NCBI GenBank assembly: GCA_965242555.1 | Contig: CBDESO010000005.1 | Coordinates: 2,579 to 66,578 of the forward strand | Source: Dehalococcoidia bacterium | Lineage (GTDB): Bacteria > Chloroflexota > Dehalococcoidia > Lucifugimonadales > JADFKI01 | Reading direction: 5' to 3' | Length of the DNA stretch: 64,000 bases | Part shown: positions 25,244 to 45,795 of the stretch, one piece after another | Position numbering within the stretch: the first letter of the stretch is position 1 | Layout of the letters: each line of letters opens with the position of its first letter | Translations under genes and position numbers: made by a program | The notes under the pieces: model-generated | Told to the model about the DNA's origin: nothing | The model's database searches: none | Seen by the model: only the letters and a program-made list of their open reading frames with translations

Positions 25244-26179
25244 ATGAAACAAGAAGAATGGCAACCGCTGATTTCGGGCTTTGCGGAGCATCTGAGGGCC
25301 GAAAAGGGGCTTGCCGACCTCACCATACGCAACTATATCGCGGACATCCAGCCGCTGTACGAGTATATGGCGCTGAAAGAGATAGCGGATATGCGCGCAC
25401 TCGATCGGCATGTCTTGCGCGCCTACCTCGCTTGGCTAAACCAACTCGGCTATGCGCGGCACAGCGTTGCGCGCAAGCTTAGTACGCTGCGAACATTCCT
25501 GAGATGGCTGGCGCGCAAGGGCGTGATAGAGGGCGATCCGCTGCCCAAGCGCGGCGTTATGCGCGTGCAAAAGCGGCTGCCGCGCTTTCTCTCGCAAGAG
25601 CAGGCGGGCCGCCTAATGGACGCGCCCGACGCCGCCAAACCCACAGGCTTGCGCGACCAGGCGCTGCTGGAAGTCATATACGGCGCCGGCCTGCGCGTCA
25701 GCGAGGCGAGCAATATGCGCGTAACCGACCTCAACCTGTCCACGCGAGAGGCGCGCATAACCGGCAAAGGCTCCAAGCAGCGCATCGTCCTGCTCGGCGA
25801 GACCGCCAAAGACGCGCTAATCGCATACCTCCGGCGCGGCCGCCCCGCCCTCGCGGGCAAAGACAGCGACACCTACCTATTCCTAAACCGCTTTGGCGGC
25901 AGACTAAGCCAGCGCAGCATCCAGCAAAAAGTCCGCAAATACAGCGTCAAAGCGGCATTGCCCTCCGGCATCCACACCCACACCTTGCGCCACTCATACG
26001 CCACCCACATGCTAGAGGGCGGCGCCGACCTGCGCGTAGTCCAGGAGCTTATGGGCCACGCCAGCCCCGCCACCACGCAGATATACACCCACGTCACCAA
26101 CGCGCAGGCGCGGCAGGTGTACCTGAACGCGCATCCGCGGGCGCGGAAGGCGCAGGGGGAGCCGCCGGCGGGGGAGTGA
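25244..26179 (+). CDS. xerC: tyrosine recombinase XerC/XerD family
   Basis: RKLSTLRTF, GLRVSE, GKGSKQR, HTLRHSYATH, QELMGH, TTQIY; dprA-topA-xerC neighbourhood; probable leaderless (TTGAAC-18-TATCCT, ATG 6 nt later). Confidence 0.85.
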   Translation: MKQEEWQPLISGFAEHLRAEKGLADLTIRNYIADIQPLYEYMALKEIADMRALDRHVLRAYLAWLNQLGYARHSVARKLSTLRTFLRWLARKGVIEGDPLPKRGVMRVQKRLPRFLSQEQAGRLMDAPDAAKPTGLRDQALLEVIYGAGLRVSEASNMRVTDLNLSTREARITGKGSKQRIVLLGETAKDALIAYLRRGRPALAGKDSDTYLFLNRFGGRLSQRSIQQKVRKYSVKAALPSGIHTHTLRHSYATHMLEGGADLRVVQELMGHASPATTQIYTHVTNAQARQVYLNAHPRARKAQGEPPAGE

Positions 26180-27806: not shown

Positions 27807-28919
27807 TTATCTCCGGCTGATATAGAAGCCTCCCCTCGCATATTTATAGTAAGGGTTGATCGAGCCGATAATCTTGTTAACAAGCCCGACTTGGTTAAGA
27901 TAGCCCCCACCGCCGCAATACCAAAAGCGGTTAATGGTCTGATTGTATATATAGACCATCTCTTCTAGGTTGTCGAATGAGAGCGTGAGGACATCATTTT
28001 GCGAAAAATGAAGGTCGTCAACGTGGAACATATCTATCGCAGATTGCTCGCCATTAGGGAAGGTTACCCTCATGTATAGTATATAAACCTGTGCAACTTT
28101 GGCATCAAGGTTCGGGAATAGTCGTCTTATTGTACGATTAAGTACAATAAGAGGATTATGATTCTGTGGATCGGCTTCTTTTTTCTGGAAATTGTATTCC
28201 CGTTCTGTCCGCGTTACTGGAGGAATGGATATTTGGCCCCTCTCGGTGCGGCAATGATTGATCCGGAAAGTCCTAATGTAATAATCGCTCAAACATGTTT
28301 GGCATGTAAGAGTCCAGAATTCGTAGTTTGTCTCGATGGTGTGGGTATTGAGAGTATGGCAACGGATATTGGCGCATATGGAGTTTATGTTGATGCTTCC
28401 GGATGCCGCGGCTTGTTGCGTTTCCGGTAGTGTATAGCCGGACTGAGGAGCTGTCAGGCTCGCTCTAATTTCATAGACTACCTGACAAGCGTCGGGTGCG
28501 CCTATTCGTTCCAGCACTTTGGTGATATTTTTCAAATGGTTTTGCGTGTCGTCGGAAGAAATGTCAGTTTGCCCCGGGTGGGCGGCGTCGTTTCTCGCGC
28601 GCGTGATCCATCCCAAAGTGCCTTGCATTGATTGGTCGTAGCCGAACTTTGCGAAGAAGATGTTGTCCCAGTGATGCCGCACTATGGACGAAAAGTGCCC
28701 GACGTCTATGGTTGCGGCGATGTTGCCGCCATTCTTTTCGAGATCGCGCGCAAAGTTGCCCGCCTGCTCCTCGCCTAGCGAATTGAATATGGCGTCATTC
28801 AACCCGCTTGCGCCGTAGGCTTGCACAAGGCTGTCAAGAATGAACGGGCGCATGCCGTCGATGTATGCGTTTAACGCCCTGTTCAATGCTTCTTGATTTG
28901 GTCTTTGAACCGTTGTCAT
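27807..28919 (-). CDS. Swt1-like HEPN domain protein with Cys4 zinc-ribbon-like and unknown C-terminal region
   Basis: N-terminus ALNRAL..YIDGMRPFI...W..IF...RARNDAAH (RxxxxH); CANIRC...CQTC; AT-richer than flanks; likely start ATG 28919. Confidence 0.7.
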   Translation of the reverse strand: MTTVQRPNQEALNRALNAYIDGMRPFILDSLVQAYGASGLNDAIFNSLGEEQAGNFARDLEKNGGNIAATIDVGHFSSIVRHHWDNIFFAKFGYDQSMQGTLGWITRARNDAAHPGQTDISSDDTQNHLKNITKVLERIGAPDACQVVYEIRASLTAPQSGYTLPETQQAAASGSININSICANIRCHTLNTHTIETNYEFWTLTCQTCLSDYYIRTFRINHCRTERGQISIPPVTRTEREYNFQKKEADPQNHNPLIVLNRTIRRLFPNLDAKVAQVYILYMRVTFPNGEQSAIDMFHVDDLHFSQNDVLTLSFDNLEEMVYIYNQTINRFWYCGGGGYLNQVGLVNKIIGSINPYYKYARGGFYISRR

Positions 28920-29018
28920 CTCGGAGGCTGCCCCTGATGATGATTGATTGGCGTGATTATAATCTAAACTTGCAACGCGGCGCAACCCCCTCCAAATATA
29001 GCCGCCCCATCCCCCAAT

Positions 29019-32672: not shown

Positions 32673-34586
32673 ATGCAGACCGTCAACCCTATCGCCAACA
32701 AGTGGCGCAAAGACGCCACCGCCGACCCTATCGCCTTTTGGGAGCGGGCGGCGGCGGAGCTGCCGTGGTTCCGAAAGTGGGACGAAGTCTTTCGCTGGGA
32801 CTTTCCCGAATTCCGATGGTTTAGCGGCGCGCGCACGAACATCGCCTACAACGCCATCGACCGCCATGTCAAGCGCGGCTGGGGCGGCCACGCGGCGCTC
32901 GCCTACGCCAACGAGCGCGGCGAGCGGCAGGTGTTCACATACTCGCAGCTCAAATACGAAGTCGAGCGCATAGCCGCCGCGCTGCGCGGCATGGGCATCC
33001 GCAAGGGCGACCGCGTCACAATCTATATGCCCGTGTCCCCGGAGGCGATAGCGCTGATGCTGGCGTGCGTCCGCATCGGCGCGATTCACTCGGTAGTGTT
33101 CGCCGGCTTTGGCGCGGGCGCGCTGGGCGACCGCATCCAAGCGAGCGGCTCGCGCCTTGTGTTCACAACCGACATCACCTATCGCAAAGGGCGGGACATC
33201 CCGCTAAAAGGCATTGTGGACGCCTCGCTGGAAATCGGCGGCGACCAGGTGGAAAGCGTGATAGTCGTCAAGCGCGCGGCGGACACGCCAATGACGCCGG
33301 GCCGGGACATCGCCTGGCAGGACTTCCTAGCGCGCGGCGAGGGCTGCGACGGCGGCTACGTCGAGATGGAGGCAAACGAACCCGCCTACATCCTAGCCAC
33401 ATCCGGCACCACCGCCAAGCCCAAACTCGCCGTCCACACGCACGGCGGCTATCAAGTCGGCATACACAGCTTGGGCAAGTGGTGTTTCGGGCTGCGCGAT
33501 ACCGATGTGTGGTGGGCAACATCCGACATAGGCTGGGTCGTCGGCCATTCGTACATCGTGTACGCCCCCCTGCTTGCGGGCAGCACGACCATCGCCTTTG
33601 AGGGCGCGATTGACCATCCGCACCCCGACGCCATCTGGCGCATATGCGAAGAGTTCGGCGTAACGGGAATGTTCACATCGCCCACCGCCGTGCGGCTGCT
33701 GATGCGCTACGGCGATGAAGGCAAGCCCAAGACCGGCTTGGCGGCGCTGGAGCGCATCGTTTGCGCCGGCGAAGTGCTAAACCCGCCCGCGTGGGAATGG
33801 CTGCAGCGAGAAGTTCTGCAAGACCGCATCCCCGTCATAGACCACTACTGGCAGACCGAAACGGGCGGCCCCCTTGTGGGCAACCCCTACGGGCTGGCGA
33901 TGCTGCCCATCAAGCCCGGCTCCAGCGGCACGCCGATGCCCGGCATAGAGGCGGCGGTTATGTCCCTAGAGGGCGAGCCCTGCGATGCGGGCGAAAAGGG
34001 CATACTCGTCATCAAGCGCCCCTTCCCAAGCCTGACGCCGATGCTCTGGGGCGAGCCGGAGCGCTACGCCGCCGACTACTGGGGCAAAATCCCGGGGCGA
34101 CGGGTATATTTCACCGGCGACTCGGCGCACATAGACGAAGACGGCTATGTCTGGTTCGCCGGACGCGCCGACGAAGTCATCAAGATAGCCGCCCACCGCA
34201 TCGGCACAATAGAAGTCGAGTCGGCGTTCCTCACGCATCCCGCCGTAGCCGAGGCGGGCGTAACCGGCCGCCCCGACGAGCTGCGCGGCGAAGTCATCTC
34301 CGCATTCGTAGCGCTGCGCGACGACTACGCCCCGTCCGACGACCTCAAGCGCGAACTGCTCCAAGCCGTCCGCCGCGAGCTCGGCCCCGTAGCGGTAATC
34401 AGCGAGCTAAACTTCGTGGACATGCTGCCCAAGACCCGCAGCGGCAAAATAATGCGCCGCGTCTTCAAGGCGGTTGTCCTAAACCAGGATCCCGGCGACA
34501 TCACCACGATAGAGGACGAGGGCAGCGTAGAAGAGGCGCGCCAAGCCTGGGAGCAAATGCGGGCAAGCCTAAGCGGCGGGCGTTAG
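32673..34586 (+). CDS. acs: acetate/propionate--CoA ligase
   Basis: RIGAIHSVVFAGF, TSGTTAKPK, YWQTETGG, YFTGD, PKTRSGKIMRR; AGGAGG SD before ATG 32673. Confidence 0.9.
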   Translation: MQTVNPIANKWRKDATADPIAFWERAAAELPWFRKWDEVFRWDFPEFRWFSGARTNIAYNAIDRHVKRGWGGHAALAYANERGERQVFTYSQLKYEVERIAAALRGMGIRKGDRVTIYMPVSPEAIALMLACVRIGAIHSVVFAGFGAGALGDRIQASGSRLVFTTDITYRKGRDIPLKGIVDASLEIGGDQVESVIVVKRAADTPMTPGRDIAWQDFLARGEGCDGGYVEMEANEPAYILATSGTTAKPKLAVHTHGGYQVGIHSLGKWCFGLRDTDVWWATSDIGWVVGHSYIVYAPLLAGSTTIAFEGAIDHPHPDAIWRICEEFGVTGMFTSPTAVRLLMRYGDEGKPKTGLAALERIVCAGEVLNPPAWEWLQREVLQDRIPVIDHYWQTETGGPLVGNPYGLAMLPIKPGSSGTPMPGIEAAVMSLEGEPCDAGEKGILVIKRPFPSLTPMLWGEPERYAADYWGKIPGRRVYFTGDSAHIDEDGYVWFAGRADEVIKIAAHRIGTIEVESAFLTHPAVAEAGVTGRPDELRGEVISAFVALRDDYAPSDDLKRELLQAVRRELGPVAVISELNFVDMLPKTRSGKIMRRVFKAVVLNQDPGDITTIEDEGSVEEARQAWEQMRASLSGGR

Positions 34587-34906
34587 CGGGCATTGCGGCT
34601 AATCTTACTCTACAACGCGCCGCCTGTCCCCACCTTAGGCGGCTTTGCAACGCAAGACTGGCATTGCGGTGTTGCGCCATAGTTGCGCCATATAGGGCGG
34701 CGCATAGCCGCGCATACGCGCACGCGCAATTCTTTGTTCACTGCCAGCGCCGGTGGGCAAACCCGCGCACGCGCATACGCACACAGCGCAAAATCCGCGC
34801 AATCCGCCAAATTGCGCCCTAATTCCCCCTTGCGCCATAGCACATATATCCGCATAATTGTGCTATACTCTTACGCCCGCTACACCCGCGCCGCTACACA
34901 AAGCCC

Positions 34907-37813
34907 ATGACCACCTCATCAAGACAAGCCGAATCCAGCGCCAACACAGCCCTCGCCGACCTGCTGCGGGGAATGATGCACGGCGTCCTCGCCCGCGCCG
35001 AAAACACCCAGGTCATCACCGGCCAGCCCGCCCTGCGCCCCGACGTCCTCATCACCGACCCGTTTCGCGCCCCCGTCGTGGTAGAGGCCGAATACCTGCC
35101 CGCCGCCTCTGTGGAAGACGAGGCGCACTCCCGCCTGGCGCTCGGCGTGGAGGGCGATTCCCGCCCCATAGAGGCCGCCGTAGCCCTCCGATACCCCACC
35201 GGCTTGCAGACCGCCCCCGACATCCGCGCCGCCCTGCTCGCCGCCCGCTCCGAATACGCCGTGCATTACAAAGACGGCGGCCGCTTTCCCACATCCGGCT
35301 GGCTAACCGGCTCGGTGTCCGACATCGCCGACATCATCCGCCTGGCGTCAGTCCCGCAAAGCGAGGTGGACGCCGCCGCCGATACGCTTGAGCGGGGTAT
35401 AGAGCGCGCCGTGGCGTCGCTGAACAATTTTGTGATAACGCGCCCGTTCATCACCCCCGAAATCGCGCGGCTGCTGGGGATGCCCGACGAGCTGCCAACG
35501 CGCCGGATGGCTTGCGCCATTATCGCCAACGCGCTCATCTTTCACTCGCGGCTCGCGGGCATAAACCCCGAAATCAAGCCGCTGGATACCCTCTGGCAAT
35601 CCGATTTGGACAACCCAAAGACGCGCATAATCGAAGTTTGGGATGAGATCCTAGAGCTCAACTACTGGGCTATATTCGCAATCGCGCGAGACATACTGCT
35701 GCAGCTGCCCGCCGCGTATGAGACGGCGGCGCTGCTAAACCGGCTGCGCGAAACCGCGCTAACCATCAATATGAGCGGCGCTCTTTTCGCGCACGACCTA
35801 ACCGGGCGCATCTTCCAGCGCCTAATCGCCGACCGCAAGTATCTCGCCACCTTCTACACGCTGCCCGCCTCCGCCGCGCTGTTGGCGCAGCTCGCCGTCG
35901 CCAAGCTAAACGGCGTTGACTGGGCGGACGCCGCCGCCATAGGCAAGCTGCGCGTGGCGGACTTCGCCTGCGGCACGGGCGCGCTGCTGTCCGCCGTCTA
36001 TGAGCAGCTCGCCAACCGCTACGAGCGCGAGGGCGGCAATCCCGCCGACCTGCACAAGGCGATGATGGAAGACGTCCTCTACGGCTGCGACGTAATGCCC
36101 TCCGCCATTCACATCAGCGGCTCATCCCTATCGGGCATACAGCCCGGCGTTGGGTTTGACCTGTCCCGCCTCTACTCAATGCCCTACGGCCGCCAATCCG
36201 ACGGCGGCGTTCAAATCGGCTCGCTGGAACTGCTGCGAACCTCAAGCGTGCTGACGCTCTTCAACACCAACGACCCCGCGCGGCGCACCGGCAGCATAGG
36301 CGAAGAGACCGCATCCCAAATCGTCGCCGAATTCCCCGACGATTCGTTTGACATAGTGATAATGAACCCGCCGTTCACGCGCTCCACCAATCACGGCGGC
36401 GCGCACCGCGATGTGGTCAACCCCGCATTCGCCGCCTTTGGCGCCGCCGCCGCCGACCAGACCGAAATGGGCAATCGCCTGAGCGCGATGGGAGTGGACA
36501 ACTGCTATCACGGCAACGCCGGCCTCGCCTCGGCTTTCGCGGCGGTGGCACATCGCAAGCTCAAGCCGGGCGGCGCGCTCGCGCTTGTCTTGCCGCTAGT
36601 GGCGTCCGCCGGCCAATCTTGGGACAAGTTCCGCCAAATGCTCAGCGCGGACTACACGGACATATCCGTCATAAGCATCGCCGCCGCGAACATCAACGAA
36701 ATCTCATTCTCGGCGGACACCGGCTTGGGCGAATGCCTGATAATCGCCCGCAAGCGAACTGCTGCCGATCCCAAGCGCGGCCGCATAAAATTCACATCCC
36801 TGCGGCGGCGTCCCCAGGGCATCGCGCAGGCGTCGGTTGTAGCGAAAGCCATCCTAGACCATCCCGAAAGCCGCAAAATAGAAGACGGCCCCTACGGCGG
36901 CGCGCTGGTTTCGGTCGGCAACGAGCAAATCGGCGAAATCCTAGACACCCCCCAAGCCGACGGCGGCAAACTAAGCGCCGTGCGCCTATACGACGCCGCC
37001 GTAGCCCAAACCGCGTACTCCCTAACCCAATCAAGCCTATGGCTACCCGCGCAACGTACGCCGTTAGATCTTAAAATTGCCTCTCTTGGCGACGTAGGCA
37101 GTCTCGGATATGTTCATCGTGACATAACGGGCCCGGCGCCTCGCGGCCCATTTGACAAAATAGATCCTAGCCCAACCGCTACATATCCCGCGCTGTGGAA
37201 TCATAACTTCAGGATGGAAACGCGCATAATTTGCGAACCCGATTCGCAATTGCAGGTCAGGCGGGGCATGGAAGACAAAGCCGCCACAATTTGGGAAACC
37301 GCCAGCCGGGCGCATCTGTGTCTTGATTTCGGCTACAGCTCCAATTCGCTCTGCGTAGCGATAACTGAACGCCCCAGCATTGGCGGCCGCGCGTGGCCCA
37401 ATGTGCAGTTCCCTGACGCCAGGTTTGACTACGCCTTCGCCCTATGGAGCAACAGCGCTTTGGGCATACTGATGCACTGGTGGCATGCAAGCCTTCAGGA
37501 CGTCGGCAGGGGATCTATATCCATCCGCGCCGCCGAAAGCCTGCCCACCCTAGACTTGCGCGCCCTCACAGACGCCCAGCTGGACAGAGCGCAGACTATC
37601 TTTGAAGAATTCCGCGCCATGGAGTTCCTACCCGCCTACCTTGCCGACGCCGACCCCAACCGCGCACTGCTGGATCGCCGCGTACTATGCGACCTACTCG
37701 GCTTTGACGACGATGTCTATCACCACGCGCGCTTGCTCGCCCAAAAGTGGTGCGCCGAACCCTCAGTCCACGGCGGCAGGCGGCGTCCTGAGAGCGCGGA
37801 GTTCGTCAGTTAG
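34907..37813 (+). CDS. single-chain Type IIG/IIL-like restriction-modification enzyme (nuclease + gamma-class amino-MTase + specificity region)
   Basis: N-terminal RPDVLI...VVVEAE nuclease-like motif; FYT, motif I DFACGTG before motif IV NPPF; long C-terminal TRD-like region. Confidence 0.85.
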   Translation: MTTSSRQAESSANTALADLLRGMMHGVLARAENTQVITGQPALRPDVLITDPFRAPVVVEAEYLPAASVEDEAHSRLALGVEGDSRPIEAAVALRYPTGLQTAPDIRAALLAARSEYAVHYKDGGRFPTSGWLTGSVSDIADIIRLASVPQSEVDAAADTLERGIERAVASLNNFVITRPFITPEIARLLGMPDELPTRRMACAIIANALIFHSRLAGINPEIKPLDTLWQSDLDNPKTRIIEVWDEILELNYWAIFAIARDILLQLPAAYETAALLNRLRETALTINMSGALFAHDLTGRIFQRLIADRKYLATFYTLPASAALLAQLAVAKLNGVDWADAAAIGKLRVADFACGTGALLSAVYEQLANRYEREGGNPADLHKAMMEDVLYGCDVMPSAIHISGSSLSGIQPGVGFDLSRLYSMPYGRQSDGGVQIGSLELLRTSSVLTLFNTNDPARRTGSIGEETASQIVAEFPDDSFDIVIMNPPFTRSTNHGGAHRDVVNPAFAAFGAAAADQTEMGNRLSAMGVDNCYHGNAGLASAFAAVAHRKLKPGGALALVLPLVASAGQSWDKFRQMLSADYTDISVISIAAANINEISFSADTGLGECLIIARKRTAADPKRGRIKFTSLRRRPQGIAQASVVAKAILDHPESRKIEDGPYGGALVSVGNEQIGEILDTPQADGGKLSAVRLYDAAVAQTAYSLTQSSLWLPAQRTPLDLKIASLGDVGSLGYVHRDITGPAPRGPFDKIDPSPTATYPALWNHNFRMETRIICEPDSQLQVRRGMEDKAATIWETASRAHLCLDFGYSSNSLCVAITERPSIGGRAWPNVQFPDARFDYAFALWSNSALGILMHWWHASLQDVGRGSISIRAAESLPTLDLRALTDAQLDRAQTIFEEFRAMEFLPAYLADADPNRALLDRRVLCDLLGFDDDVYHHARLLAQKWCAEPSVHGGRRRPESAEFVS

Positions 37814-37873
37814 CAGAAACCAGCAAAATAGGATACGGCGCTGTGATACCCATACATATAAGAGAGGCGCTAT

Positions 37874-38827
37874 ATGCCCGAAAGCCGCAAATTAGAAGAC
37901 GGCCCCTACGGCGGCGATATTATCGCGCTTGGGGACGAAATAATCGGCGAAACCATTGACGCTCCGCAACTCCCCAGCGGCAAGCTAAGCGCCGTGCGCC
38001 TATATGACGCCGCCGTAGCCCAGACCGCGCACGCTCTAACCCAATCAAGCCTATGGCTGCCCGCGCAATTCATGCCGCTGGAACTGAAAATGGCGTTGCT
38101 GGGCGATGTTGGAAAGCGCGGCTTGGTTTCCAGAGACATAAACGAACCCCCAACTCGCGGCCCCTTTGACCTACTTGATCCTAGCCCTACGTCCACCTAC
38201 CCCGCGCTTTGGAATCACAACGCCAAGGCGGAAACGCGAATAATATGCGAACCCGATTCACAACTGCGAGTGCGTCCGGGCTTGGAAGAAAAAGCTGCGC
38301 TAGTCTGGAACACCGCGAGCCGCGCCCATCACAATGTTGAATTCAGATACAACTCCCAGCCGCTCTGCGTAGCGATAACTGAACGCCCCAGCATCGGCGG
38401 CCGCGCTTGGCCCAATATACAATTCCCCGACGCCCGATTTGACTACGCATTCGCCCTATGGGGCAACAGTACCTTGGGCATATTGATGCACTGGTGGCAC
38501 GCAAGCCTCCAAGACGCCGGCAGAGGCTCAATATCCATCACCGCCGCCGAATCCCTCCCCACCCTAGACCTCCGCGCCCTAACCGACGCCCAACTAGCCA
38601 CCGCCCAGACCATCTTCAACGAATTCCGCGACCTAGACCTACTCCCCGCCTACCTCGCCGACGCCGACCCCAACCGCGCCCTGCTAGACCGCCGCGTCCT
38701 ATGCGACCTGCTCCACTTCCCCGAACCCGTCTATCGCGCCGCCCGCCTCCTCGCCCAAAAGTGGTGCGCCGAACCCTCAGTCCACGGCGGCAAGCGGCGT
38801 CCTGAGGGCGCGAAGTTCGTGGTCTAG
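37874..38827 (+). CDS. stand-alone variant copy of the C-terminal specificity region of the upstream RM enzyme
   Basis: Residues 2-317 align gap-free with residues 653-968 of the upstream gene (about 77% identical by hand count); own ATG after AGAGAGG. Confidence 0.85.
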   Translation: MPESRKLEDGPYGGDIIALGDEIIGETIDAPQLPSGKLSAVRLYDAAVAQTAHALTQSSLWLPAQFMPLELKMALLGDVGKRGLVSRDINEPPTRGPFDLLDPSPTSTYPALWNHNAKAETRIICEPDSQLRVRPGLEEKAALVWNTASRAHHNVEFRYNSQPLCVAITERPSIGGRAWPNIQFPDARFDYAFALWGNSTLGILMHWWHASLQDAGRGSISITAAESLPTLDLRALTDAQLATAQTIFNEFRDLDLLPAYLADADPNRALLDRRVLCDLLHFPEPVYRAARLLAQKWCAEPSVHGGKRRPEGAKFVV

Positions 38828-38867
38828 GATGTTGCCGTAGCGCTGTCCAGCGCGTCCGCTGTCGCGT

Positions 38868-39320
38868 CTAGCCCCTTATCGCCGCCCCATCCACCGCCGC
38901 CCCTATCGCCCCCTTCAGCGGCTCCAGATACGAGCGCGCCGTCCGCATCGTGGGCAGCAGAGCCTCGCAGGGTATCCACTCGCACAAGTCAATGTTCTCC
39001 GACAGATCTGGAACAAGCGGATCCGCCCGGCTACCGGCATAATCCAGCAAAAACCAGTCCACCGTCTTGTTGAACGGCTTGCCGGAGTAGTACGAGATGT
39101 AGCTTGTGCGGGCGAGCGGCGCGCGCACTGACAGCAGCGCGGGATTTAAGCCCGTCTCTTCGGCGATTTCGCGGATGGCGCAGATTTCGGGCAATTCGCG
39201 CTTTTTGCGCTTGCCCTTGGGAATGTCCCACAACCCATGCTTGCGTATCAGCAGCCCATAGCCGCCGCAGAGGACTATGCCGCCCGCGGCGGACATTTGA
39301 GGCAGTTCGGGGCTATTCAT
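38868..39320 (-). CDS. NUDIX hydrolase
   Basis: Complete Nudix box GKRKKRELPEICAIREIAEETGL preceded by WDIPK. Confidence 0.9.
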   Translation of the reverse strand: MNSPELPQMSAAGGIVLCGGYGLLIRKHGLWDIPKGKRKKRELPEICAIREIAEETGLNPALLSVRAPLARTSYISYYSGKPFNKTVDWFLLDYAGSRADPLVPDLSENIDLCEWIPCEALLPTMRTARSYLEPLKGAIGAAVDGAAIRG

Positions 39321-40209
39321 GCATTAGTATCCGTTCCAGCACCGCCACCTGCGCCGCGTTCATATCCCGAAACAGAACGCCGTCCACGATGATGTTTCGC
39401 AGGTCGGGCTGCTCCCTATCCGGCTCCGCGGCGACTAGACTGAGATCTTTGCCGCGATAATCAAATTGGCTCAGGATGTAGTATATCGTGTTCAGGCGCG
39501 CCTGATGCTTGTTGTCAGAATCTATTATCACCCACGGCGCGTAATCGGTTGATGTGACCGCGAACATTCGCTCCTTGAAATAGGTGAGCAGCTGCCAGCG
39601 CTCGGCGGTTTTGCGGTCGGTGGGCGAGTATTTCCAGTATTGCAGCTCGCTGTCGCGGCGCATCTTAAAGCGCAAATCCTGCGCCTCGCGCGAAACCGAC
39701 AGGTAGATTTTAAGCAGGCGCACGCCCTCATCTACAACGCGCTTTTCCCAGTCGTTGATGTGCGTCATAAAGTAGCCGTACTGCCGCATAGAGCAGTAGC
39801 CCAGCGCGGGCTGCACAAGCGCGCGGGAATACCATGAGCGGTCGAATATGGCGATGTTGCCCGGCGTGGGCAGCATCTTGTAGTGGCTGCCAAGCCAGTT
39901 TCGCATCTGCTGCGGCGAGGGTATGCCCTGCGCGATAACCTTGGCGGATTTGGGATTGAGATAGTGCGTAATGCCCGCGGCGGTAGCCCCCTTGCCCGCG
40001 GCGTCCCTGCCCTCCAGCACGATTGCCGCGCGGATGCCCCGCTCCAATATCCACTCCTGCATAAGCAGCAGTTGGACGCGCAGCAACCGCAATTCGGCGC
40101 GATAGGCGGGATAATCTATATCGCGGAACGCCGCGACTTCATAGCCGGTCGCGGTGGTTTGCGGCAGGATATTCGTGGGGGCTTGCGTATAGCGGTCGGA
40201 TTTCATCAT
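39313..40209 (-). CDS. ppk2: polyphosphate kinase 2
   Basis: EGRDAAGKG Walker A, IFDRSWY Walker B, WKYSPTD, APW.II.SDNK..ARLN. Confidence 0.92.
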   Translation of the reverse strand: MMKSDRYTQAPTNILPQTTATGYEVAAFRDIDYPAYRAELRLLRVQLLLMQEWILERGIRAAIVLEGRDAAGKGATAAGITHYLNPKSAKVIAQGIPSPQQMRNWLGSHYKMLPTPGNIAIFDRSWYSRALVQPALGYCSMRQYGYFMTHINDWEKRVVDEGVRLLKIYLSVSREAQDLRFKMRRDSELQYWKYSPTDRKTAERWQLLTYFKERMFAVTSTDYAPWVIIDSDNKHQARLNTIYYILSQFDYRGKDLSLVAAEPDREQPDLRNIIVDGVLFRDMNAAQVAVLERILMHE

Positions 40210-42641: not shown

Positions 42642-43646
42642 TCAGATATTCTTCTTCCTGCTTGCTTTGCGCCGCGCTCTCGCCTTAGCGAAAAACTCAG
42701 TATCTCTCTTGTATTGTTCTGTAAGCCAGTTGACGAAAGCGTGGCTATATTGGCTAGGAGATCCTGGGACTTTGCCCTGGTAAAAATACTCTGATTTACT
42801 CTTTATCTTATGTGTTTCATTAACACTTTGGATGTCGTACTGATTTATGAGGGGGAATGTTGCCCTCATTTCTTTAATCACATCCTTCTGTCGAAGAGGA
42901 TGCGTTGTGCCAGGATCTTTGGGATCTCGAACTATCAGAATAGGAACGCCGCCTGAACCTTTCGAAAGATCTATATCCGCCTCGCCGGGCTTATTTGTAA
43001 GCACGAGGCGATAGTCTATCCCGATTGAAAATTCAGGACTTCCCTGATGACTCTCAAGCTCATCTCTGAGTTCGGCGCAGTAACGATCAAGAAACTCCAC
43101 AGCGTCTTTGCCTAGACTGCGCCGCAAGCGGGCGTCAGTCAAATCTGATTGTTCCGGGCTCAAGTCGTAGACGAGGCTCATCATCCCAACAGAAAATCTA
43201 TCGGATAGGGACTCGCCGAACCATTCATTCAGGTGTTTGTGGTAGTTGATAACGCACACCTGCGAGAGCATCATCAGTTCATGTGGAATTCGGCTGATTA
43301 CAAGGTGAGTAGATTCGTCGCGGAGTTCTATTATGCGCTCTATATTGCGCCGAACAGGATCATTTTCTTTGGGCTTGACTTTCTTCAAGCAGTCGTGCAG
43401 AGAAAGGGATATTCGCGCGTTATTTCTTGTCATTCTGTTGGAATAGATGGCGTCTTCATTGCCGGCGTCAGCAATAACTTTCGCCTTTAGCAGCAGTTCC
43501 CACGCATTGCAAATTAGGATGCAAAACGTCTCTATGCGGTACTGAATAGTAACGCGGTTTATGGTCTCTAGACTGAGCGCGTATGCCTCGATACTCTTGT
43601 CAACCAGCCTTTGCTTGAGGTCAAAAGCATCCGCGGAATCGTTCAT
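42642..43646 (-). CDS. DUF3644-family (HEPN-like) protein
   Basis: LVDKSIEA..L..E..N......R.E.F..L..NAWELLLKA and LRDESTH (RxxxxH); lower GC than flanking recR/recO. Confidence 0.78.
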   Translation of the reverse strand: MNDSADAFDLKQRLVDKSIEAYALSLETINRVTIQYRIETFCILICNAWELLLKAKVIADAGNEDAIYSNRMTRNNARISLSLHDCLKKVKPKENDPVRRNIERIIELRDESTHLVISRIPHELMMLSQVCVINYHKHLNEWFGESLSDRFSVGMMSLVYDLSPEQSDLTDARLRRSLGKDAVEFLDRYCAELRDELESHQGSPEFSIGIDYRLVLTNKPGEADIDLSKGSGGVPILIVRDPKDPGTTHPLRQKDVIKEMRATFPLINQYDIQSVNETHKIKSKSEYFYQGKVPGSPSQYSHAFVNWLTEQYKRDTEFFAKARARRKASRKKNI

Positions 43647-44313: not shown

Positions 44314-45795
44314 CTACACCATCGTGAACTGCTCGGCGTCGGGCTGCTGATTGCGCGGCGCGCGCCTGAAAGTGGCTTGCGGCGCAACGCGCGGATACTG
44401 CGGCGCCGTGCCCCCGAGCAACTCTTCTATCGTAAAGATCTGCAGCCGCGGGAACCGCAGATCCGGGTAATGCTCCGGCGCATAAAACCCAGCCGCCAGC
44501 GCCTCCCGCGTCATCGGCGCGGTGGGACGCCGCAGCGTGATGAACACCCCTATGGCGGCGTTTTCGCGCTCAACCACGCCCTTCAGATCCCGTATCTGCG
44601 CCACGCCCACGCTGCCGCTTTTCACCTGCACGACCACGCGCTTTGCCCTGCCGCTATTGTCGTCAAAGAAGTTGATGTAGCCGTCTATGCCTGAATCCGC
44701 CCCCCTGCGCTTATCCTGCGCCGGCCGCGCGTCCACCAGCCCCAGCGCCCACCACTCGAACTGGTAGCGGTCATGCCGCGCCAGCGCCCGCGCGCCCGCC
44801 AAATCCTTGGGATCGCCGACAACATCATACGGCCGCAGCGCATCCCCGAAAGTGTCTTGCAGCCGATGGCGTATCAGCGCAATAGCGAGATGCGTGATGT
44901 CAATGCCGATCCAGCGGCGATTAAGGCGCTCCGACGCTATCGTCGCCGTCCCGCAGCCGCAGAACGGGTCCAGCACAACATCGCCCTCATTGCTGCTTGC
45001 GCTGATGATGCGCTCCAGCAATGGTTCGGGTTTCTGAGTGGGAAACAACTGGCGTATCGGCGGCACTCGCCCAATATCCCACACATCGTCCTGCCTAACG
45101 CCGGGCGATTCCTCTTCGCTAGTTCGCGACGGCAATCTTTGTCCGCTCTCATCGCGCCCGGATATGATCGTAGATGCGCCAAATCGTCGCGTAGTGGACA
45201 GCGCGCGATCCATATAGAGTTGGTTGAATGTGCGCTCGCGGGTGGGCGTCCGCGAATAGAAGAGTATTACATCGTGGTTTCGCTGAAATGCGTAGCGCCC
45301 CGTCGACCATTTCCTGTAATGCCACACTATCTCGTTGCGGAAATTCCTAGCGCCAAACACTGAGTCCAGCATCAGTTTCAAGTAGTGGCTTACGTTGGGA
45401 TCGCAGTGCAGATATATGCTGCCCGCCGGTTTCAAGACGCGATGCAGCTCCACCATCCGCTGCGCCATCATCGTCAGATACGCCATCATATCGTTCTGCC
45501 CCAGAAACGACCGCATCGCCTGCAGCATATCCGACAGCGCGCGCGGCCCGTCGGTGACAACATCGCGGTAGGCGAGCTCAGACTCCACGCTCCAGCGCCA
45601 CGTGTCGTCAAACGCGGTTATCTGCGCCGCCGACCGCTCGCCGTCCCCCTCGCGGAACAGCACATTGTAGGTAGCGTTGGAATTGAACGGCGGGTCAAGG
45701 TATATCAGATCGACCGACTCGTCGGCGATATGCTCCCTGAGTATGTCCAGGTTGTCCCCGAAATAGAGGCTGTTCGTCCACTGCTCAGTTGCCAT
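44314..45795 (-). CDS. beta-class N4/N6 DNA methyltransferase fused to Mrr-like endonuclease domain
   Basis: DLIYLDPPF precedes PTQKP and VLDPFCGCGT; C-terminal YQFE.WA...DSGIDG...VQVKSG. Confidence 0.9.
   Translation of the reverse strand: MATEQWTNSLYFGDNLDILREHIADESVDLIYLDPPFNSNATYNVLFREGDGERSAAQITAFDDTWRWSVESELAYRDVVTDGPRALSDMLQAMRSFLGQNDMMAYLTMMAQRMVELHRVLKPAGSIYLHCDPNVSHYLKLMLDSVFGARNFRNEIVWHYRKWSTGRYAFQRNHDVILFYSRTPTRERTFNQLYMDRALSTTRRFGASTIISGRDESGQRLPSRTSEEESPGVRQDDVWDIGRVPPIRQLFPTQKPEPLLERIISASSNEGDVVLDPFCGCGTATIASERLNRRWIGIDITHLAIALIRHRLQDTFGDALRPYDVVGDPKDLAGARALARHDRYQFEWWALGLVDARPAQDKRRGADSGIDGYINFFDDNSGRAKRVVVQVKSGSVGVAQIRDLKGVVERENAAIGVFITLRRPTAPMTREALAAGFYAPEHYPDLRFPRLQIFTIEELLGGTAPQYPRVAPQATFRRAPRNQQPDAEQFTMV

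Follow-up and report, generated by a model that had tools for sequence, protein, structure and literature searches.

A restriction enzyme that acquires a new target poses a risk, since its cutting and its protective methylation have to shift in step. Single-chain restriction-modification (RM) enzymes avoid this risk through one shared target recognition domain (TRD), and stored, exchangeable TRDs have, to our knowledge, so far been described for Type I specificity genes only. Why, then, should the gene of a single-chain enzyme be followed by a second, intact gene that repeats nothing but its TRD? The question is raised by a tandem pair at positions 34907-38827 of a 64,000-nucleotide (nt) stretch of DNA, here called the window, from a Dehalococcoidia bacterium (contig CBDESO010000005.1, positions 2,579 to 66,578). 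The first gene encodes the 968-residue protein P0001, and the second, here called the cassette, encodes the 317-residue protein P0002. The answer that we consider probable, if only narrowly so, is that a core of the TRD has been reciprocally exchanged between the enzyme gene and the spare TRD of the cassette, giving the enzyme an alternative specificity.

The enzyme and its free-standing recognition domain

An earlier note on this locus, made from the sequence alone, assigned to the first gene the nuclease-methyltransferase-TRD layout of Type IIG/IIL enzymes and took the second for a copy of the TRD alone; structure matches support both assignments. The gene for P0001 is an open reading frame (ORF) at 34907-37813 (the features of the locus lie on the forward strand). 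By its AlphaFold model, which was built on 111 family sequences (predicted local distance difference test score (pLDDT) 92.8, predicted template modelling score 0.94), P0001 is a single-chain RM protein of the Type IIG/IIL layout with four predicted parts: (i) an N-terminal PD-ExE/K nuclease at about residues 1-150, (ii) a helical region at about 151-310, (iii) a gamma-class N6-adenine methyltransferase with an NPPF motif at about 311-652, and (iv) a C-terminal TRD at 653-968, which would set the target for both cutting and methylation.

The methyltransferase assignment is carried by a Pfam match to the Eco57I methylase (PF07669, residues 391-591, E 1e-6, above the cut-off) and by D352, G356, G358, and N487-P488-P489 of the NPPF motif, all invariant in the 111 family sequences. 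The putative nuclease motif reads P45-D46...E60-x-E62, with D46 present in 111 of 111 and E60 in 110 of 111 sequences, while position 62 holds E in 90 and K in 19 of them. A Glu at the position usually held by Lys is paralleled in BamHI. Foldseek placed BpuSI first (3s1s, E 1.5e-16), followed by DrdV, CamA, and PglX. Alignment of the P0001 model with VIA-align gave Z scores of 26.0 for CamA (488 residues aligned, model 293-941), 23.3 for DrdV (642 aligned, model 2-938), and 21.8 for BpuSI (model 128-960); CamA, M.TaqI, and M.BseCI match with Z 21-26, in support of the methyltransferase assignment, and the alignments of CamA, M.BseCI, M.TaqI, DrdV, and PglX extend through residues 888-965, that is, through the C-terminal fused TRD, whose fold is also assigned from the homologous cassette model. 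NCBIfam returned no match above its cut-off, and sequence matches in the PDB are confined to the methyltransferase motif I region of PglX/BrxX, none reaching further. PADLOC matches have modest scores and name the MADS methyltransferase, Type II methylases, PglX, and Type IIG models. The best of them is mad2 (E 4.8e-12), but a MADS system was rejected, no other MADS gene being recognised among the neighbouring ORFs examined.

The cassette (37874-38827) follows after a 60-nt spacer (37814-37873). Residues 653-967 of P0001 and 2-316 of P0002 are identical at 244 of 315 positions (77%; 271/315 positives, 0 gaps, BLASTP E 6e-180), in agreement with the gapless repeat at about 77% identity that the earlier note had described for a 968-residue gene and a 317-residue ORF 60 nt behind it. 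At the nucleotide level, the TRD-coding part of the enzyme gene (copy A, 36863-37813, residues 653-968 plus the stop codon) and its counterpart in the cassette gene (copy B, aligned over 37877-38827) are identical at 755 of 951 positions with no indel, and the two are direct repeats with a start-to-start spacing of 1014 nt. Identity is 262/317, 280/317, and 213/317 at codon positions 1, 2, and 3, respectively, and this pattern, lowest at the third position, indicates coding sequence under constraint.

Modelled alone, P0002 folds with a pLDDT of 95.7. Compared with 48161 chains, the model finds 21 at Z of at least 2, the best being BpuSI 524-875 (Z 15.0, root-mean-square deviation 4.1, 244 residues aligned), so that BpuSI is the best structural match to both proteins of the pair. 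Further matches comprise the TRD parts of M.BseCI, CamA, PglX, several HsdS chains, the S subunit of BsaXI (Foldseek E 9.8e-5; Z 7.5), and MmeI (618-893, Z 6.5). Among the 17 best rows, 16 belong to methyltransferases or restriction enzymes and align through their TRD part, and the remaining one is Esub1; the HsdS chains align to P0002 at about residues 70-255 only. No Pfam family scores above threshold in P0002, the Eco57I methylase being present in P0001 only. The start of P0002 falls in the loop right after the linker helix (residues 639-650) of the P0001 model. On these models, P0002 is a free-standing TRD, paralogous to that of the enzyme and beginning exactly at the domain boundary.

The spacer contains no terminator-like site, and the start codon and Shine-Dalgarno-like sequence claimed in the earlier note are both in place (GAGAGG at 37862-37867, 6 nt before the ATG at 37874). 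In the genome of a sister species (G021; the genome of the window is designated G000), the same tandem occurs with a 58-nt spacer and a 317-residue ORF. The two spacers have otherwise diverged, but GATACC, CATAT, and GAGGCGCTA with the ATG are kept. We infer that P0002 is expressed, probably by co-transcription with the enzyme gene followed by translation. The first ~30 nt of the spacer (37814-37843), directly past the stop codon of P0001, repeat the start of the TRD module in degenerate form, with 25 of 30 nt matching in G021 and a 1-nt deletion in the window. This vestige may be the scar of an exact tandem duplication or of a further cassette that was lost.

The cassette is under purifying selection and is not decaying. 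Between G000 and G021, its synonymous divergence (dS) is 0.233 and its nonsynonymous divergence (dN) 0.045, for a dN/dS of 0.19. The corresponding dS and dN/dS values are 0.225 and 0.15 for the TRD of the enzyme, 0.17 and 0.04 for the neighbouring PPK2 gene, and 0.22 and 0.11 for the neighbouring NUDIX gene. The cassette as a whole has fewer nonsynonymous changes than expected (31 of 78, binomial P 2e-11), and so does its N-segment alone, which stays in place in every protein (6 of 14, P 0.01). Fourteen cassette versions occur in the protein collection, every one of 317 residues and free of stops and frameshifts. As a separate observation, the first 652 codons of the enzyme gene (34907-36862) have a dS of 0.133 between G000 and G021, compared with 0.225 for the TRD part (36863-37813) and 0.30 for its C-segment, a contrast that hints at separate histories of the gene parts.

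These data bear directly on the reading that we consider the least probable of those weighed here, namely that the cassette has no function and is left over from a partial tandem duplication or from an older gene that was displaced, its mosaics (described below) having arisen only by inter-strain recombination or assembly errors. The family does abound in 5′-truncated copies and short 3′ remnants: the 120 short matches listed form a continuum of truncation points, remnants of 39-65 residues lie downstream of full-length paralogues in G007, G008, G002, and G015, and the spacer itself opens with a vestige of the module start. A relic is nevertheless hard to reconcile with a dN/dS of 0.19, with 14 versions lacking any stop or frameshift, with a conserved start codon and ribosome-binding box, and with the recurrence of the tandem in a second species genome.

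Two core classes in two places

For comparison, the TRD was divided, in P0001 numbering, into an N-segment (653-716), a core (717-814), and a C-segment (815-968). Nucleotide identity between the two copies is 83% in the N-part, 70% in the core, and 84% in the C-part, and the longest identical runs measure 43, 34, 24, 23, and 23 nt, which bears out the earlier description of conserved blocks alternating with divergent patches. In the enzyme gene, the core lies at 37055-37348 and is of class A in this genome; in the cassette, it lies at 38069-38362 (P0002 residues 66-163) and is of class B, both assignments being based on class comparison and dS. Directly repeated conserved blocks bound it on either side. 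The left block (36971-37044, residues 689-713) shares identical runs of 20, 17, and 23 nt with its counterpart at 37985-38058, and the right block (37347-37380, residues 814-825) is a 34-nt run identical to that at 38361-38394.

A comparison of 14 full-length proteins with 14 cassettes divides the core into two classes that are 63-68% identical to each other and 82-100% identical within themselves, and either class is found in either place. The N-segment, by contrast with the core, tracks position in every protein: enzymes are 92-100% like P0001 and cassettes 87-100% like P0002. Enzymes and cassettes were paired by matching proteins through contigs of identical length, of which there are 11. 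Eight pairs combine an enzyme core of class A with a cassette core of class B, among them the window, G021, and two further contigs of 3.4-3.5 Mb, and three have the reverse arrangement (contigs of 6303, 13204, and 80785 nt). Neither A+A nor B+B occurs (0 of 11 each; Fisher P 0.006, with relatedness ignored). The unpaired proteins comprise enzymes with two class B cores and one class A core and cassettes in the same proportions (two class B, one class A). Breakpoints of the exchange fall in residues 687-716 and 815-832, the same regions in which the window shares the runs of 20, 17, and 23 nt on the left and 34 nt on the right. The dS between copies reaches 1.0-1.2 in the core and only 0.30-0.33 and 0.48-0.50 in the flanks, which means either that the core alleles are the older ones or that the flanks have become partly homogenised.

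The class A cores that reside in cassettes are 78-91% identical to any enzyme-resident class A core and have 4 private positions in common. Enzyme-resident class B cores are 91-98% alike across backgrounds. The swapped contigs thus hold class A cores of a lineage of their own and are not mis-joined copies of the common arrangement. This speaks further against a relic with assembly artefacts, in favour of which it can be said that the swapped arrangements were seen on no metagenome contigs other than short ones; to produce them by error, each of three contigs would have to contain four false joins.

The right end of the core is variable beyond the two classes. This patch (residues 801-814) includes LCLDFGYSSNS in class A and HNVEFRYNSQP in class B, a third version (LNLNFTFGAQP) is found in the otherwise class A proteins P0245, P0247, and P0128, and cassette-resident class A cores carry a fourth (LSLDFSYNSNS). 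With four versions in existence, the loop may be a sub-module of its own.

Exchange of the core would proceed by homologous recombination in the near-identical flanking blocks, trading cores between enzyme gene and cassette. A double crossover, one per block, would amount to cutting out a 1014-nt circle and inserting it again at the opposite block. The two arrangements now coexist in the population, with one core of each class in each cell, so that the enzyme could take up either core while the other stays intact next door. General homologous recombination of the RecA type is proposed because no recombinase is at hand: as the earlier note had stated, the copies are in direct orientation and no recombinase adjoins them. 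The nearest gene of the Phage_integrase (tyrosine recombinase) family, at 25244-26179, is 8.7 kb upstream, and 34000-40000 holds no meaningful inverted repeats, only ones of 16-25 nt with 76-88% complementarity. Diversity in phage defence or methylation would be what keeps both arrangements.

Cores A and B are predicted to read different DNA motifs for two reasons: the core sits in the first half of the HsdS-like TRD fold (P0002 about 70-255), and the differences between A and B fall on family-variable positions (mean entropy within the core 2.9 compared with 2.14 bits, P 1e-4). In the MmeI family, a few TRD residues are reported to determine the recognised bases (PMC2731914, PMC4833311). No positive selection on the core is seen between the classes, with a dN/dS of 0.23-0.26 at a dS near saturation.

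How often has the exchange taken place? On a tree of residues 1-652, the core class changes at least 3 times, and two of these changes separate class A/class B sister pairs that are 98.8-99.1% identical (supports 87-94%). The simplest reading is that of one or a few old reciprocal swaps, after which the arrangements spread between backgrounds by inter-strain recombination. The exchange of cores is thus a rare event on an evolutionary scale and not rapid phase variation. The specificity switching by cassette that the earlier note envisaged accordingly stands in part: the core has moved between gene and cassette in related strains, with breakpoints in the conserved blocks that the note named, but the exchange is reciprocal and old, none having occurred since the G021 split, so that switching in the sense of frequent phase variation is not supported.

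A fast, phase-variable switch within clones, acting by frequent gene conversion or by excision and reintegration and leaving mixed populations, is on this evidence very unlikely. Its attraction lies in the geometry, a variable segment between short direct repeats as in the pneumococcal tvr locus (PMC6265443), and in the conflict of core class with the residue 1-652 tree at no fewer than three places, two of them sister pairs. Several observations oppose it: the locus is not adjoined by a recombinase gene; its repeats have a length of just 34 nt and of 74 nt with 2 mismatches; no exchange has occurred across a dS of ~0.2 between G000 and G021; and cassette-resident class A cores are 9-22% diverged from enzyme-resident ones and have private residues in common, which argues for long residence in one place.

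Recombinant junctions, which the earlier note had proposed to look for, were sought in contigs of four runs (X1, X2, X5, and X6) on 34500-39500 at a likeness of at least 88%. These pieces are mostly ~300 nt long and come from several strains and paralogues, with the copies not phased. No well-supported homologous A-to-B joint, skipping ~1013 nt, is among the 15 joints listed of 31, although rare forms could escape such short contigs. Loop-out between conserved blocks, another proposal of the note, finds no support, as a single chimeric gene was encountered neither among the full-length relatives examined nor in the run contigs. One listed joint leads from 38827 to 37874, going back 954 nt (shorter side 36 letters, runs X1 and X2). 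It could represent a circle or a tandem cassette or, equally, a strain with a cassette-like 3′ end of the enzyme gene and a diverged spacer.

Several points weigh against reciprocal exchange as a source of alternative specificity. Copies A and B show no gene conversion after the divergence of G000 and G021, 119 informative sites grouping by copy as opposed to 6 and 4, and the private residues common to cassette-resident class A cores fit a single old swap that was spread by inter-strain recombination. All three swapped pairs are on short contigs (6.3, 13.2, and 80.8 kb), whereas the four contigs that are 3.4-3.5 Mb long or belong to the genome of the window all have the common arrangement; tandem adjacency in the swapped loci is assumed, co-location resting on equal lengths of contigs. 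A search of metagenome contigs with P0126 for the DNA of the swapped loci matched 134 stretches, none of which was confirmed. The difference in specificity between cores A and B is a prediction, and the core is no more variable across the family than the nuclease domain (entropy 2.38 compared with 2.47 bits), which is unusual for a specificity determinant. With Glu in place of Lys at position 62, nuclease cleavage by P0001 is putative. Finally, strong purifying selection on a rarely used donor suggests that the main role of the cassette may lie elsewhere.

A possible role for the free domain, and known systems

A cassette that is rarely a donor yet strongly constrained points to a role for the P0002 protein itself. 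Its main selected role could be that of a free TRD acting in trans, in which case core exchange would be an incidental by-product of similar neighbouring sequences. Such a protein might replace or pair with the TRD of the enzyme and so confer a second specificity, or it might bind sites of its own as a regulator or protector. We regard this as unlikely on the whole, though as a contender to be taken seriously. In its favour, purifying selection spans the entire ORF, including the immobile N-segment; the ATG and the GAGG box are kept in an otherwise diverged spacer; the length is fixed at 317 residues in 14 of 14 versions; the cassette folds confidently alone; and each of the 11 paired contigs has a class A and a class B core, which would fit a simultaneous need for the two.

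Prediction of a complex between P0001 311-968 and P0002 offers weak further support, with a score of 0.36 compared with 0.00 for the best control. Of 157 solved complexes and 215 mismatched pairs, 116 and 2, respectively, pass the mark used for such scores, and the range up to 0.60 contains only 18 of the 157 solved complexes and both of the passing mismatches. The runs agree in at least 0% of contacts, with a partner pLDDT of at least 84, and the three runs disagree on the interface. Because P0002 is a close copy of the TRD of the enzyme, likeness alone may produce the score. A tethered TRD should, moreover, out-compete a free one for the methyltransferase domain, and known Type IIG/IIB enzymes with a separate specificity subunit have no TRD of their own, the subunit having two (PMC3077401, and the BsaXI chains).

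The two roles may also be combined in a recombinase-free, two-state specificity system, in which the free TRD would be made and would work with the enzyme, as a second specificity or as a safeguard during change-over, while the core would be traded at the direct repeats, both traits being selected for diverse phage defence in dense sponge-symbiont communities. This composite is unlikely. The constraint on the free TRD in any case raises the question of what cellular job a TRD performs without catalytic partners.

The kind of enzyme, a single-chain Type IIG/IIL protein, and the exchange of TRDs as a principle are already known. BpuSI (3S1S) and MmeI/DrdV (5HR4, 7LO5) combine in one polypeptide the same nuclease, helical spacer, gamma-class methyltransferase, and C-terminal TRD. 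P0001 is only 10-15% identical to them in structural alignments and differs in the Glu that 90 of 111 members of its family carry where Lys is usual. We know of no described enzyme of the BpuSI/MmeI/DrdV type with a separate downstream TRD-only gene. What is new here is a selectively maintained TRD-only gene behind a single-chain enzyme, together with the reciprocal exchange of a 98-residue core, and no such case was found in the literature searched.

Among systems that vary specificity, the inverting hsdS loci (pneumococcal SpnIII/ivr, Mycoplasma pulmonis, and Bacteroides fragilis) resemble the present pair in that a partial specificity gene with an alternative TRD, silent in those loci, stands beside the main one. 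They differ in having inverted repeats, usually an invertase, and high-frequency switching, whereas the copies here are direct and the inverted repeats short and imperfect. Closer in mode is the domain movement (DOMO) of Helicobacter pylori, in which a TRD occupies different positions in different strains and the short flanking repeats are the inferred recombination sites (Furuta et al. 2011, PMC3077401). DOMO was likewise inferred by genome comparison, and it is not known to use a dedicated recombinase. In like manner, core classes A and B each occur in enzyme gene and cassette (8:3 pairs), with breakpoints in conserved blocks. DOMO, however, moves sequences between TRD1 and TRD2 of one S gene, of a Type I system or a Type IIG system with a separate S subunit; here, the fused TRD of a single-chain enzyme trades with a TRD-only gene that stands apart from it, the movement is confined to the first half of the TRD, and all 11 pairs are reciprocal.

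In the tvr locus of Streptococcus pneumoniae (SpnIV), parts of hsdS are shuffled by excision and reintegration at direct repeats (Kwun et al. 2018, PMC6265443). Common to tvr and the present locus are direct repeats that guide the exchange of TRD segments, an expressed and a stored gene, and two recombination events per change. The tvr locus differs in the separate hsdS genes of a Type I system, in a dedicated recombinase (TvrR) with regulators, and in circles and within-clone variation that have been demonstrated. The BsaXI RM and S proteins (8W0P; PMC9159934) provide a further parallel, in which the neighbour of a fused nuclease-methyltransferase gene likewise encodes a free protein with a TRD fold. 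In BsaXI, however, the RM subunit is devoid of a TRD and the S subunit has two, whereas P0001 keeps a full TRD and P0002 has one, so that the pair is not of the BsaXI/BcgI type.

Reciprocal exchange of the core suggests that enzymes of the single-chain kind can likewise have an alternative reader stored in the neighbouring gene and swap a 98-residue core with it by means of no more than two short conserved blocks. Should the cores differ in the motifs that they read, they would provide (i) a natural map of the specificity-setting part of the TRD, useful for engineering, and (ii) a compact model for the upkeep of diversity in defence or methylation in uncultured symbionts. The genomes of these symbionts hold up to 17 TRD matches each, most of them in full-length genes.

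Genomic setting and family distribution

The pair is flanked by an AMP-binding/acetyl-CoA-synthetase-like gene and a NUDIX gene, followed by PPK2, and housekeeping genes fill the interval between the recombinase gene at 25244-26179 and the locus. Separate hsdR, hsdM, and hsdS genes, as in a Type I system, are not present; one fused gene and one TRD-only gene stand in their place. Part of the stretch is contained in 10 of 12 listed runs, sponge metagenomes but no RNA run among them, and the named relatives are entered as 'Chloroflexota bacterium'.

The family is large, with 5106 proteins at E of at most 0.001 among 8000 scored candidates and 3799 cluster representatives at the same threshold. 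P0002 finds a match in 76 of 201 sampled genomes of the order, and the genome of the window holds five further full-length paralogues. Three genomes of the same genus (G012, G014, and G015, ~3.3 Mb) have 13, 16, and 17 TRD matches, mostly in ORFs of ~970 residues at ~60% identity. Among the species genomes searched (27 of the family and 201 of the order), only G000 and G021 contain an independent frame that is as long as the cassette and matches it at high identity over its full length. A family-wide conserved stand-alone form was considered and rejected: the 120 short matches listed (270-545 residues) start at internal Met residues all along the gene, and this continuum marks the other short relatives as fragments. 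Among the matches listed, only P0002, P0123-P0127 with their cluster mates, and P0221 (318 residues, 60% identical) start at the same boundary.

Tandem arrays and remnants accompany the family elsewhere. G165:C1:1246063-1270398 contains five copies within 25 kb, of which some form tandem arrays with a spacing of ~2.9 kb. Short remnants that correspond to the final 39-65 residues of P0001-like genes (54-74% identical) persist just downstream of full-length paralogues at loci L020 (G007:C6), L022 (G008:C1), L021 (G002:C117), and L023 (G015:C1). The paralogues upstream of the remnants in G007 and G008 are only 25-27% identical to P0001, and in G015 an N-terminal remnant (residues 3-170) and a C-terminal remnant adjoin the PPK2 orthologue. 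These remnants suggest repeated replacement of family members at the same sites. The close paralogue at L024 (G012:C3:657000-668000; 69-73% identical) is broken into two frames, which overlap at about residues 607-624, and probably represents a frameshifted pseudogene; the genome search had returned it as an open frame of 419 residues.

Frames of 231-241 residues in four genomes of the genus match the TRD (P0002 about 87-307) at 24-27% identity and may represent a separate family of small stand-alone proteins (G002:C138:3740-4384, G008:C1:1549350-1549985, G015:C1:1156161-1156769, and G006:C1:1216674-1217270). Within the window, three other defence-like single genes, all on the reverse strand, are wedged among the housekeeping genes: a DUF3644 protein with an EC042_2821 restriction-endonuclease-like end (42642-43646), situated between recO-like and recR-like genes in DNA of low GC content (48-51%); an N6_N4 methylase fused to an Mrr_cat nuclease domain (44314-45795); and a Swt1-like HEPN domain protein (27807-28985) in a stretch of 46-52% GC.

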